Shown: positions 2,130 through 58,835 of the stretch, one piece after another
How the letters are laid out: every line of letters starts with the position of its first letter
Numbering within the stretch: position 1 is the stretch's first letter
Source of the DNA: a virus
Reading direction: 5' to 3' (one strand)
Virus record (IMG/VR): IMGVR_UViG_3300031519_004559
Length of the DNA stretch: 64,000 nucleotides
The notes under the pieces: model-generated
What the model was told of the DNA's origin: nothing
The model's input: only the letters and a program-made list of their open reading frames with translations
Database searches by the model: none
Program-made: the position numbers and the translations under genes

Positions 2130-3026
2130 CTAGGTACCCCAGGCATTTCCGAATAAGCTGATGTGTAGTCTAGGGGTGAAGCGCCATCCCTTTTCCATGC
2201 AAACTTCCGCAACTTCTTTAACGTTAAGGACATACTCTTCCGAGCGTCCCCCAAGCGGCATACAATATACTGGACACTCAACGCCGACATCACGATATGC
2301 TTGCACAGCTCGCCCAGCTTCATCAATGTCTGCACGATCAGCAACGACAAATTTAAGATAAAGATCACTGCCATCAACAGTGGAATAGTTAAGAGCGACA
2401 TCAGGCTTAATAGCGTCCATCCAAGATTCTCCGCTAACGGATAGCTTAGGCGAACAACTCCACGTGACAGTAATTCTGTCACTATTGTTGAGATAGTTGT
2501 AGAGGTCATCATGTAATACTTGTGTAGTGTTTGTTTCAAATGTAACATTTTTTAAATCCTTCATACGTGGATGTTCGAACAGTTCTACGTAAAGTCGTTG
2601 CCACGCTAACAACGGCTCACCACCTGTCATAATTAAATGGATATCTTGTCCGTTATCCATTGTCCACTTGCCTTCTGGAGTAAGAGATAGCAAATGCTCA
2701 ACTACTTCTTCAACTTCTGCAAGTTTGTTAAAGTCTTTAAACTCAGGATAGATACTTGCATAAGTGTCACATCCTGTATGGATAATAGGCAAATCTGTAA
2801 ACTTTTCAGTCTTTGCAATAATGCCATCATCTAACAAATCTTTTACTTCTTGATTGTAGCGTTGCCCGCCTGCAAGTTTTTCTGCACGACTAGGTTCATC
2901 TTTACCGAGTCCAAAGTTCATACAACGGAAGTTACAACCGAAGGTACGCAAGAATACACTAGGTACTCCTACAAACTTACCTTCGCCTTGTACGCTGTAG
3001 AACGCTTCACTGTACCGCAACTTCAT
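2130..3026 (-). CDS. queE: 7-carboxy-7-deazaguanine synthase (radical SAM) with long insertion in Cys motif
   Basis: EAFYSVQGEG..G.PSVFLRTFGCNFRC...GCDT, TGGEP, ETN, SPKL, RLH motifs; adjacent to folE. Confidence 0.92.
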   Translation of the reverse strand: MKLRYSEAFYSVQGEGKFVGVPSVFLRTFGCNFRCMNFGLGKDEPSRAEKLAGGQRYNQEVKDLLDDGIIAKTEKFTDLPIIHTGCDTYASIYPEFKDFNKLAEVEEVVEHLLSLTPEGKWTMDNGQDIHLIMTGGEPLLAWQRLYVELFEHPRMKDLKNVTFETNTTQVLHDDLYNYLNNSDRITVTWSCSPKLSVSGESWMDAIKPDVALNYSTVDGSDLYLKFVVADRADIDEAGRAVQAYRDVGVECPVYCMPLGGRSEEYVLNVKEVAEVCMEKGWRFTPRLHISLFGNAWGT

Positions 3027-3706
3027 CGTGCAAACTCCTGTTGCAATTTAATGTTGTCAAAGAACTCCTTCTTAGTACCCGGATCATATTTAAAACTACC
3101 TTGTAATACAGTTGTTTGTGTAAGACTGCTAGTTGCCATAATGCCACGGTTCTCACAACAGCCGTGTGTTGCTTGAATATAAACACCTAAGTTTTCTGCA
3201 CCAGTTGCTTTACCAATCTCACGTGCAATGTCATTTGCAAGTTCTTCTTGTAGAGTGCCACGTCGAGCGCACCATTGTGCAATACGTGTGTACTTACTAA
3301 GTCCGATAAGTTTGTCTGCAGCAATAATACCAATATATGCAGTGCCTGTAACAGGCTGGTGATGATGTGAACACATGCTTTTAAGTTCACTACGTACAAC
3401 CAACATTCCGTCATATCGTTCATCACTGTCATTAGGAAATGCTGTTGCACTTGGCATTGGGTCATACCGACCTGACATAATCTCATTAAAGTACATCTTA
3501 GCAAGCCGTCTTGCTGTACCTTCTGAGTTAGGATCGTTGCGTCGATCAATAATTAGTGTATCTAGTACAGTGTTAAAAGCTAGAGTAGCTTCATCAATAA
3601 GATCTTGTTTATCTCCATCTTCTAACACTGCACTAATATTGTCGCCGGCCCAAAAGCGTATATTGTTTACTTCTAGACGTTGTTTAACTACTTCTGATTT
3701 ATTCAT
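3023..3706 (-). CDS. folE: GTP cyclohydrolase I
   Basis: SMCSHHHQP, IGLSKYTR, LQEEL, HGCCENRG motifs. Confidence 0.95.
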   Translation of the reverse strand: MNKSEVVKQRLEVNNIRFWAGDNISAVLEDGDKQDLIDEATLAFNTVLDTLIIDRRNDPNSEGTARRLAKMYFNEIMSGRYDPMPSATAFPNDSDERYDGMLVVRSELKSMCSHHHQPVTGTAYIGIIAADKLIGLSKYTRIAQWCARRGTLQEELANDIAREIGKATGAENLGVYIQATHGCCENRGIMATSSLTQTTVLQGSFKYDPGTKKEFFDNIKLQQEFAR

Positions 3707-3709
3707 TCA

Positions 3710-3741
3710 CTTCTCCGATGTTTAGGCAGGGGATTGCCTGT
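3710..3741 (-). ncRNA. candidate cis-regulatory RNA in folE leader (hairpin / possible SD-pairing pseudoknot)
   Basis: AGGCA-AUCCCC-UGCCU-AAACAUC-GGAGA directly before the start codon. Confidence 0.4.
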
Positions 3742-3752
3742 AATATACTATA

Positions 3753-3781
3753 AGTATACACGTTTATTTAGGTTTTGTCAA
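3753..3781 (-). promoter_or_regulatory. sigma70 promoter TTGACA-N17-TATACT with nested TAAATA late-like motif, upstream of folE
   Basis: Direct sequence; TAAATA at 3765-3770. Confidence 0.8.
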
Positions 3782-3788
3782 CCGTTAA

Positions 3789-3983
3789 CTAAAATAATTT
3801 TAGCATTTCTAAACGGTCATTTGCTTCTGCCATTTTATCAAGTTCTGTTTGAATAGCCTCCATCACATCACTGTGTTCACCAATACCGGCTGGGTTAGTT
3901 AAGTACACTTCGACATTTGCTTTGTGCAATGCAATAGCGCCTTCGGCATGTTTCTGTGCCGCTTCAATCATCATGTTACGCAT
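3789..3983 (-). CDS. small hypothetical protein (MRNMMIEAAQKHAEG...)
   Basis: Likely true start overlaps HIT stop. Confidence 0.7.
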   Translation of the reverse strand: MRNMMIEAAQKHAEGAIALHKANVEVYLTNPAGIGEHSDVMEAIQTELDKMAEANDRLEMLKLF

Positions 3984-4356
3984 GATAGTTTCCTTTCTCT
4001 GGGATAACGTGACGTACCCCGCCACGGGGGTCTTCTGTATCACCGTCTCTTCTAAAGATAAGGTGTACGTGGGGATACATGCAAGTCTGACCTGCACTCT
4101 CTCCCATATTAAGGCCAATGTTATAGCCTGTAATATCATTGTTTGCTGCTACTTTATTTTGATCGCCCATAGCAACAGCAAATTTAAAACATTTCATTAG
4201 CTCTTCTTGTGTCACTTGTTTAGGTACTATAAGAGTATGTCCTTGTGTAACCGGATATGCATCTTCGTACACTACAAAGTCTCTAGTATCGTATGTTACA
4301 TTGGTCCACGGCGCTCGCCCGTCCGCTTGTGCCTTAGCTAGAGTATCAATACTCAC
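3976..4356 (-). CDS. HIT family nucleotide hydrolase
   Basis: DAYPVTQGHTLIVPK and AGQTCMYPHVHLI histidine-triad region. Confidence 0.9.
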   Translation of the reverse strand: MSIDTLAKAQADGRAPWTNVTYDTRDFVVYEDAYPVTQGHTLIVPKQVTQEELMKCFKFAVAMGDQNKVAANNDITGYNIGLNMGESAGQTCMYPHVHLIFRRDGDTEDPRGGVRHVIPEKGNYHA

Positions 4357-7932: not shown

Positions 7933-9492
7933 TTATATCTCCTCGAATAAATTGCCAAAGGTGGTACTAGCATTCACAGTCTTCTTACCAATAGCACCAC
8001 GTGTTCCTGGAATGGCCATCCAAAACTTTGAATAACTATCAATAACCTTCATAGACTCTTCTCGAGTTGTCTTTGAAAAAATCTCTTCAACAACATCTCT
8101 AAATAGAATACGATCAAACTTTTCGTCTACAAGCATCTTAGGTATAACGCCTGCATCGTACTGTCTATTAGCTTCTTGTACAGCATTAATGTGTGTCCAT
8201 ACGTTATGGCCCATCTGAATAGCATAACTAAAGCTATCCCAGCTCGTTGAGTCCCTGCCACGTACAGTTGTGTTACCATCTGCATCTAGCAAAGGATTAC
8301 CTTCTTTGTCTAAGTCAACATCGCCTTTGAGTACTTTAATAGTACCAATTTTATTAGTATCACCGACTGAATACGTGCAAATATCGTTAACTAATAATCC
8401 GTCAGTTAATGGACTATCTTCAAATGTATTAAAGATACCGTCTTGTAGTGTAGCGTCTTTAAATCCTCGAGTGTCAGTTGCATACTTTAGTTCGTCCACA
8501 CTAGGCACCATTCGATAGGTCCATTTACCTCTATCAGGTGTTTCAACTGATGTATATACTTGTCCATTAGCAGTTGCTAAAAATGGACTAGCACAGTCAA
8601 ATGTAAGCATCATAGTAGGGTTATAGTACTTACGTACAGCTCGTTGTACGTCTGTAAGTAACGTAGCCCATTCTAGCTTAGATGTGCCTAAGAAGTGCAT
8701 TACATCGTGTATACCGCTTTGTAGTAGTCCATCATAGTGCAATGAAACTATACGTTTAAGAACCAAATGCACATCGCACATATTCTGACCACCCATTGAC
8801 CACCCATTAAAGTGATTGTCTGGATATTTGACTGGATCGCAATAGTCTTTCATTTGCTCATACCAGTCATCGGCGTCTGCATGATTCTCACCTTGCAATA
8901 CGTTAAGGAACTTACAAGCACCTGTTCTATGCTTCATCCAATAGTCATTGTTAATACGTGTTGCTTTCACAGCTTCTTGATATGTACTAATACCAGTTGC
9001 CTTTGCACCTGCTGGTGAACGTGCAACCCAAGCTGGAATATCAAGTATCATACCATAGTCCATGTAAGCATCCATCCAACGCAAAACACTATCACGTTTT
9101 TGCTGTGCTTTAGGACAATTAGGATCTTTCCAATCGCCTTCCCAAACACCTTTACCAATTTGAAAACCACCACTATCGCCTAGTGCCCAAGTATTATCAC
9201 GATCTCTATTACGGATCATATCTTCCTTAGGGCTAAACTTAGTAGTGTCTAATTCAGCATGTCCTGCAGAGTAAAGCGTCCACTTGTATGTAAATGCTCC
9301 TTCTTTGGAGTTAAGATAGTTAAGACTTTCCATGCCATTTGCAAAGTTTTTAGGCATACGATCATCAGAAACATACGGACCAGTTACAGGATCAGGATAA
9401 CGTTGCTTGCCCACATAAGTTGCATAGAAGCCACTAAGTGCAGGTAAGAAATGTGCGTAATCTTGTTGCGCTTCTGTAAGGTCTTTATTCAT
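7933..9492 (-). CDS. dpdA: DpdA-like DNA 7-deazaguanine transglycosylase (TGT fold)
   Basis: DSGGFQ, MILDIP, NVLQG, HFLG, TFDCASP TGT motifs; no typical tRNA-TGT Zn-binding tail; context. Confidence 0.8.
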   Translation of the reverse strand: MNKDLTEAQQDYAHFLPALSGFYATYVGKQRYPDPVTGPYVSDDRMPKNFANGMESLNYLNSKEGAFTYKWTLYSAGHAELDTTKFSPKEDMIRNRDRDNTWALGDSGGFQIGKGVWEGDWKDPNCPKAQQKRDSVLRWMDAYMDYGMILDIPAWVARSPAGAKATGISTYQEAVKATRINNDYWMKHRTGACKFLNVLQGENHADADDWYEQMKDYCDPVKYPDNHFNGWSMGGQNMCDVHLVLKRIVSLHYDGLLQSGIHDVMHFLGTSKLEWATLLTDVQRAVRKYYNPTMMLTFDCASPFLATANGQVYTSVETPDRGKWTYRMVPSVDELKYATDTRGFKDATLQDGIFNTFEDSPLTDGLLVNDICTYSVGDTNKIGTIKVLKGDVDLDKEGNPLLDADGNTTVRGRDSTSWDSFSYAIQMGHNVWTHINAVQEANRQYDAGVIPKMLVDEKFDRILFRDVVEEIFSKTTREESMKVIDSYSKFWMAIPGTRGAIGKKTVNASTTFGNLFEEI

Positions 9493-58774: not shown

Positions 58775-58835
58775 ATGTTCTCCTATATTGAACGGCGGAG
58801 TATTTAAAGAGGGTCGACGTATAAAGTCCTCTGTG
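58775..58835 (-). ncRNA. candidate cis-regulatory RNA in queD leader
   Basis: AGAGG...CCUCU stem with inner GAC/GUC, then CUCC anti-SD before AGGAGA. Confidence 0.4.

Follow-up and report, generated by a model that had tools for sequence, protein, structure and literature searches.

The 64,000-nt stretch of phage DNA analysed here (the window; IMG/VR virus record IMGVR_UViG_3300031519_004559) carries folE behind a leader of ~40 nt, measured from promoter to start codon. The question raised by this leader is whether it holds a regulatory RNA and, if so, what the RNA responds to. The initial annotation described a hairpin whose loop could pair with the Shine-Dalgarno (SD) sequence as an H-type pseudoknot, and proposed a new phage cis-regulator that senses GTP or a deazaguanine or is bound by FolE. 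Its reading of the leader was exact: the minus-strand letters, hairpin, linker, SD, and AUG were all confirmed, and six bases lie between the SD and the AUG. The promoter, described as a consensus sigma70 promoter, proved to be near-consensus, with a 17-nt spacer between its boxes. It was retained in relatives, including those that lack the motif. Transcription of folE would start near A3746. folE overlaps the next gene by 4 nt at the queE start, and a 137-aa ORF and then SAM synthetase follow the queE-like gene. The coordinates of the features are given in Table 1.

Table 1. Features of the folE and queD loci in the window.
Feature	Position	Strand	Details
Sigma-70-type promoter of folE-queE-orf137-metK operon	3753–3781	-	11/12 consensus positions
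-35 box of folE promoter, TTGACA	3781–3776	-	
-10 box of folE promoter, TATACT	3758–3753	-	
P1 5′ strand, AGGCA	3735–3739	-	pairs with 3728–3724; core four pairs GGCA 3738–3735
Loop, AUCCCC	3729–3734	-	L1 A3734; P2 5′ strand U3733-C3732-C3731; L2 C3730 + C3729
P1 3′ strand, UGCCU	3724–3728	-	covaries with 3739–3735
L3 linker, AAACAUC	3717–3723	-	consensus (N)AAC(A)UC
Shine-Dalgarno, GGAG	3713–3716	-	G3716-G3715-A3714 = P2 3′ strand (predicted)
folE start codon, AUG	3706–3704	-	
folE, GTP cyclohydrolase I, 227 aa	3023–3706	-	Pfam PF01227, E 1.6e-37; PHROG 2197
queE-like radical-SAM gene, next after folE	2130–3026		PHROG 2076, E 2e-48
queD consensus promoter	58876–58848	-	
queD leader pseudoknot	58791–58832	-	larger than that of folE; H-type
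queD P1	58832–58828 with 58812–58808	-	AGAGG with CCUCU
queD L3	58807–58795	-	UUAAAUACUCCGC
queD P2 3′ strand	58794–58791	-	CGUU
queD SD	58783–58780	-	
queD start codon, AUG	58774	-	
queD	58774–58325	-	PHROG 2389, E 8.8e-40

The folE hairpin was unremarkable alone. The minimum free energy (MFE) of the leader was -6.3 kcal/mol, with a z of -0.14 against dinucleotide shuffles, so the window by itself is no evidence and the evidence is comparative. The comparison supported a very small H-type pseudoknot of ~25 nt that would engage the SD. In this layout, P1 has 4–5 bp, L1 is one A, and P2 would consist of the three pairs UCC:GGA. L2 has two nucleotides, a variable position and then an invariant C beside P1, and L3 is the A-rich linker AAC(A)UC.

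Relatives were collected by a FolE-anchored search of IMG/VR, which gave >597 relatives; the best 80 of these, 78–87% identical, were examined, and the motif lay directly upstream of folE in 67 of the 80. The FolE loci taken for comparison were the best 80 of about 600 and about 290. The motif was found at 182 loci in uncultured phages (148 distinct contexts), as an element of ~28 nt and always before folE. There were 24 distinct stem versions among the collected loci, with one copy per window or locus. A covariance model of 80 distinct sequences gave one significant copy in the 64-kb window (3711–3741, minus strand, 38.2 bits, E 1e-10). A scan for the loop and tail pattern without the FolE anchor returned 119 stretches. 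Every match with a complementary stem preceded folE, or a ~130-aa ORF and then folE; the stem-less matches were GC-rich chance occurrences without folE. The ~130-aa ORF sits between motif and folE in L036 (2444–2842), L134, L142, and L177. Its protein reads MxxFKxxEExxSxKEEYDxLYNxDH..., and a PHROG search with it gave no match.

The motif spanned two FolE clades with a mutual identity of only 37–39%. In the second clade it was present in roughly a third to two fifths of the fetched loci, and most of the folE genes without it there had no leader of their own, being coupled to, or continuing from, an upstream frame. A blastn search of GenBank phages with the two motif classes yielded no true match. 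In prokaryotes, at one genome per species, the pattern scan gave only three true copies, the rest being mostly coding coincidences such as DILVNNVG. All three copies were on MAG-binned contigs, one of 335 kb, and these contigs are probably phage. The phage DNA polymerase was 42–48% identical to jumbo-phage polymerases, those of Sinorhizobium Phosso, Agrobacterium Atu_ph07, Vibrio 2.275.O, and large (350–385 kb) E. coli phages.

The motif is dispensable, since close relatives keep the promoter without the hairpin, a 356-kb record rated 96% complete among them. Their existence, together with the UUG start codons of many folE relatives, would suit a pseudoknot or hairpin that permanently sets or lowers folE translation, or shields the 5′ end of the mRNA, and senses nothing. 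SD-occluding structures and 5′ hairpins often set expression levels, which also favours such constitutive tuning.

The motif-less relatives were L051 (the 356-kb record, G011), L056, L058, L078, L065, and L066, in which the folE promoter leads straight into the SD. The queD leader knot was still present in G011 (L559). An apparent decayed motif was seen in L390 at about 1455–1500, with the loop AUCCAU, from which the invariant C is gone, and a tail without GG; the two losses coincide.

The loop AUCCNC and the tail AAC(A)UCGGAG were almost invariant, while flanks and synonymous sites drifted. Mean pairwise identity was 0.92 in the loop, 0.54 in the stem, 0.36 in the 20 nt upstream, and 0.51 at folE third codon positions. 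Among 90 distinct sequences, C3732, C3731, and C3729 were invariant, and A3734 and U3733 were kept in at least 90%. The AAC and UC of L3 were invariant or nearly so. Unpaired loop and tail were thus far more conserved than flanks and synonymous sites, which is the pattern of a structured RNA. Constitutive tuning leaves the invariance of A8, C13, AAC, and UC unexplained, since these are unneeded for occlusion or for a 5′ hairpin.

P1 was supported by covariation. Standard pairs filled 97.5% of the cells in the 90 distinct sequences, against 75% in column shuffles and 26–45% with slid partners. Double-sided changes occurred in all four core pairs; pair 6:15, for example, was AU in 35 sequences, CG in 33, UA in 21, and GC in 1. 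RNAalifold independently predicted the same P1 stem. On a quick maximum-likelihood FolE tree there were at least 28–33 pair-state changes, which may include whole-leader exchange between phages. The check for conservation and stem covariation in homologous leaders had been set beforehand, and the motif passed it.

Two other structures were rejected. An alternative SD-sequestering hairpin, pairing stem 3′ positions 14 and 15 with tail positions 23 and 22, was not a conserved helix, because it tracked only the class-1/class-2 split and was broken in 19 of 80 sequences and also in every variant with a G-C closing pair. A double-stranded DNA operator was rejected on the grounds that the arms vary freely around an invariant asymmetric centre.

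An invariant loop on a covarying stem, set beside the SD, is classic protein-operator anatomy. It would agree with a translational operator at which an RNA-binding protein of the phage or its host, perhaps FolE, grips loop and tail and blocks the SD. The small size of the motif, tiny for a metabolite pocket, and the jumbo phages that are the nearest cultured relatives of the polymerase point the same way. The T4 gp43 and RegA operators and the MS2 coat-protein hairpin are small hairpins whose loop is conserved and whose stem covaries, placed beside or over the SD of a single gene. They work via protein and need no loop-SD pairing.

Because the loop UCC and the SD GGA were almost invariant, loop variants were specifically sought. 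A U-to-C change in the loop was found in five distinct sequences, and in four of them the tail GGA had become GGG; GGGAG was present in none of the 85 distinct sequences with the standard loop. The compensated carriers were L397/L452, L467, and L462, with class-1 stems, and L488, with a class-2 stem, and all had the tail UCGGGAG. On the FolE tree, the change of U9:A28 to C:G in L397, L462, L467, and L488 amounted to three concordant independent contrasts. The sole uncompensated loop change was in L040, with C opposite A. In L070 and L072 both partners were altered, with CCU in the loop and AGGA as the SD. The H-type pairing UCC:GGA proposed in the initial annotation is supported but not proven by these compensatory changes, which concern 3 bp and comprise four variant sequences plus L070/L072.

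The phage folE loop and SD change together, and the compensatory changes point to RNA-RNA pairing beyond protein contacts alone. Further points against a protein operator are that the motif persists over FolE proteins as divergent as those of the two clades and that no co-varying RNA-binding gene was identified. A protein-bound operator is on balance unlikely, while being a serious alternative.

The linker and the stem were also coupled. The extra A of the linker (AACAUC vs AACUC) was present if and only if the loop-closing pair was A-U (46/0/0/48). On the FolE tree, all ten independent supported contrasts pointed the same way (sign test, p 0.002). This strict link suggests that L3 touches the top of P1 in a tertiary contact. 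Constitutive tuning does not explain it, and we regard that explanation as improbable.

The folE motif was compared with known RNA families. The Rfam check proposed in the initial annotation was run with Rfam 15; at E ≤ 10 the motif had no family match on stretches of 51 nt (3700–3750) and 71 nt (L041, 2940–3010). On a 501-nt stretch (3500–4000), there were weak matches elsewhere only and none on the motif. The closest known kind was the preQ1-I riboswitch, especially type III, in line with the earlier remark that size and topology are preQ1-I-like without a match to the consensus. The phage motif has the H-type pseudoknot, with a P1 of ~5 bp and a predicted P2 to an SD-containing tail. The last L2 nucleotide is a cytidine, C13 (3729), invariant in the 90 distinct sequences. 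The genes are also those of the 7-deazaguanine/queuosine pathway, with the folE-queE operon and queD in the window.

In preQ1-I, the ligand pairs with a C at the last position of L2 (PMC3905878), and 4–6 conserved L3 adenines stand directly before P2 (PMC10622847, PMC3905878). In type III, P2 takes up GGA of the SD, and the ligand is read by the L2 cytidine and contacted by a conserved L1 uridine (PMC10622847). The type III riboswitch of the E. coli yhhQ leader was described as the smallest natural aptamer, with a 36-mer wild type and a 30-mer that was crystallised (PMC10622847). The phage motif resembles type III as a compact H-type pseudoknot that would act as a translational OFF switch, with SD GGA as the P2 3′ strand, a tight pyrimidine-rich loop, a conserved cytidine at the L2 end adjoining P1, and a 7-deazaguanine link.

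Membership of preQ1-I failed on four counts. There was no poly-A run directly before P2, where UC or AUC precedes GGA and type III has 4–5 adenines. L1 was a single A, replaced by G only in L387, instead of U, and U9 belongs to P2. The loop polarity was reversed, with UCC:GGA in the phage motif and CCU:AGG in type III. The model gave no score, RF00522 (gathering threshold 39 bits) having no match at E ≤ 10 on the 51–71-nt stretches. The phage motif is also shorter than type III (~25 nt; its loop of 6 nt is smaller than that of type III, and its L2 has 2 nt), and it is predicted to govern folE, whereas type III governs a transporter. preQ1 is an unlikely ligand in the phages, as the related records searched appear to be without QueC. 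With topology, SD usage, loop composition, and pathway context in its favour and the four counts and the missing QueC against it, a diverged type III-like member of preQ1-I that binds preQ1 or preQ0 is very improbable. A canonical preQ1-I was also sought elsewhere in five related phage records and only noise was found; the best RF00522 match, 15.9 bits, was within a coding region.

Type II preQ1-I, known from the B. subtilis queC and T. tengcongensis leaders, shares with the phage motif a 5-bp P1, a short L1, a short P2, a ligand-pairing C as the last L2 nucleotide (ligand-pairing in type II), and an A-rich L3, which is C-interrupted in T. tengcongensis, where the first SD nucleotides are buried (PMC3905878). 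It differs in its 4-bp P2 with non-canonical pairs, its 4–6-nt L2, and its six L3 adenines. The sequence consensus is not common to the two, and there was no covariance-model match.

Another riboswitch of folE, THF-II, is a longer hairpin with internal loops from Gram-negative bacteria and not a pseudoknot, and the phage element differs from it in this. The THF-II ligand bears a guanine-like 2-amino-4-oxo face. The likeness is that THF-II (the folE motif; PMC9881143) is a cis-regulator of folE translation. THF-II and all other Rfam 15 covariance models gave no match to the phage motif at E ≤ 10.

The queD leader of the window carried a second candidate pseudoknot. Its loop has 15 nt and ends in UCGAC. 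Among 25 distinct relatives, P1 occurred in seven complementary versions. P2, taken as the 4 nt before L2 and the 4 nt after the CUCYGC anchor, occurred in 16 complementary combinations. At least three of the four P2 positions were paired in 25/25 relatives, and all four in 56%, compared with 19% for the cross-sequence control. MFE folds show the P2 3′ strand paired instead with the SD and start-codon region. It thus competes with a helix that sequesters SD and AUG, and formation of the pseudoknot should free the ribosome-binding site. The folds suggest ON-switch logic for the queD leader, opposite to the wiring of folE. The leader had no Rfam family match at E ≤ 10. The folE and queD motifs have in common an L2 ending in C beside P1 and an L3 with AAC(N)UC, where the queD L3 contains AAAYAYUC. 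The two motifs appear related, on the basis of a hand alignment of short loops with no statistical model.

The queD leader bears on the alternatives. Its competing helices resemble a genuine switch, which counts against constitutive tuning. An oppositely wired knot on unlinked queD is not predicted by FolE autoregulation; a protein shared by the two leaders and dedicated to them still could account for it. Since related architecture stands on two unlinked pathway genes, a common diffusible signal is favoured, and FolE autoregulation is less likely.

The folE leader is, in our judgement, somewhat more probably than otherwise a translational OFF riboswitch in which P2, marginal at 3 bp, is held in place by a small molecule from the pathway. 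P2 would be too weak to stand alone, and the invariant unpaired A8, C13, AAC, and UC could make the effector pocket. Binding of the small molecule would stabilise P2 and turn folE translation off. With P2 formed, the ribosome-binding site would be buried and 30S binding blocked; FolE synthesis would fall, and the coupled translation of queE would fall along with it. This reading is weakened by its size, as a 25-nt aptamer would undercut any validated one. Of the earlier proposal of a phage cis-regulator, the part that stands is a conserved cis-acting RNA, as argued by the conservation, the covariation in P1 and P2, and the exclusive association with folE; this RNA is absent from Rfam.

The OFF logic, a ligand, and its identity would fit together as follows. 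GTP would be a poor effector for a leader that switches folE off. With folE off and queD on, the intermediate 7,8-dihydroneopterin triphosphate, the FolE product and QueD substrate, fits better than a deazaguanine end product. This intermediate, or a pterin derived from it, may be the best-fitting effector, and a 7-deazaguanine base (CDG, 7-deazaguanine, or preQ0) would be the second choice. Nine long related phage records yielded no QueC, and these phages therefore probably make neither preQ0 nor preQ1. The end point of the pathway is probably 7-carboxy-7-deazaguanine or a derivative rather than preQ0/preQ1. It is possible, and we put it forward tentatively, that the two leaders form a new riboswitch class of uncultured large phages, with an aptamer of ~25 nt, smaller than any natural one known, and a folE-off/queD-on pair that has a common core and senses a pterin intermediate or a 7-deazaguanine. 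Such a pair would balance flux into the DNA hypermodification pathway.

Searches of the literature gave no account of a phage RNA motif linked to folE or queD, and the word riboswitch was absent from the key phage deazaguanine papers. Documented phage riboswitches are few, and none is known for the 7-deazaguanine DNA-modification pathway. If the folE motif binds a metabolite, natural aptamers would have a new lower size limit, its ~25 nt being below any validated size. The motif would then be a compact, portable translational switch, by which phages control GTP entry into the DNA-modification pathway post-transcriptionally. Together with the queD leader it would make a rare OFF/ON pair answering one signal.

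Other features upstream of folE were recorded. An intrinsic terminator or attenuator in the leader was rejected; a U-tract was absent and no terminator was predicted on the minus strand. An upstream 64-aa ORF (PHROG 1811) was dismissed as a partner of the motif, being present also in cyanophages without folE. The promoter spacer contains CCTAAATA at 3765–3772 (minus strand), which looks like a T4-type late-promoter box and was kept in most relatives, motif-less ones too. CTAAATA as a late-promoter motif was not enriched in the 64-kb window (19 found vs 17.6 expected). An inverted repeat lies at 3744–3758 (minus strand), with its 5′ arm over the -10 box. The arms have 6 bp in the window and 9–12 bp in ~20 of 57 distinct relatives, and the repeat is much longer in L001, L002, L004, L009, L027, and L033. 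The arm letters vary among phages and the complementarity stays. A transcript containing the whole repeat would need a start further upstream.

Elsewhere in the window, a 519-aa protein (7933–9492, minus strand) had no match in Pfam (E ≤ 0.01), PHROGs, or PDB sequences. A ~33-nt sequence (ATGAYGCA GACATCCGCTTCGATAACTTCGGAG G) recurred in many rumen/gut Bacteroidales contigs, sometimes twice per contig. It was seen at L205, L210, L212 (two copies), L222, L223, L226, L231, and L232 and at about 10 more Bacteroidales/Paludibacteraceae MAG loci. It has no relation to the phage motif and could be a repeat element.
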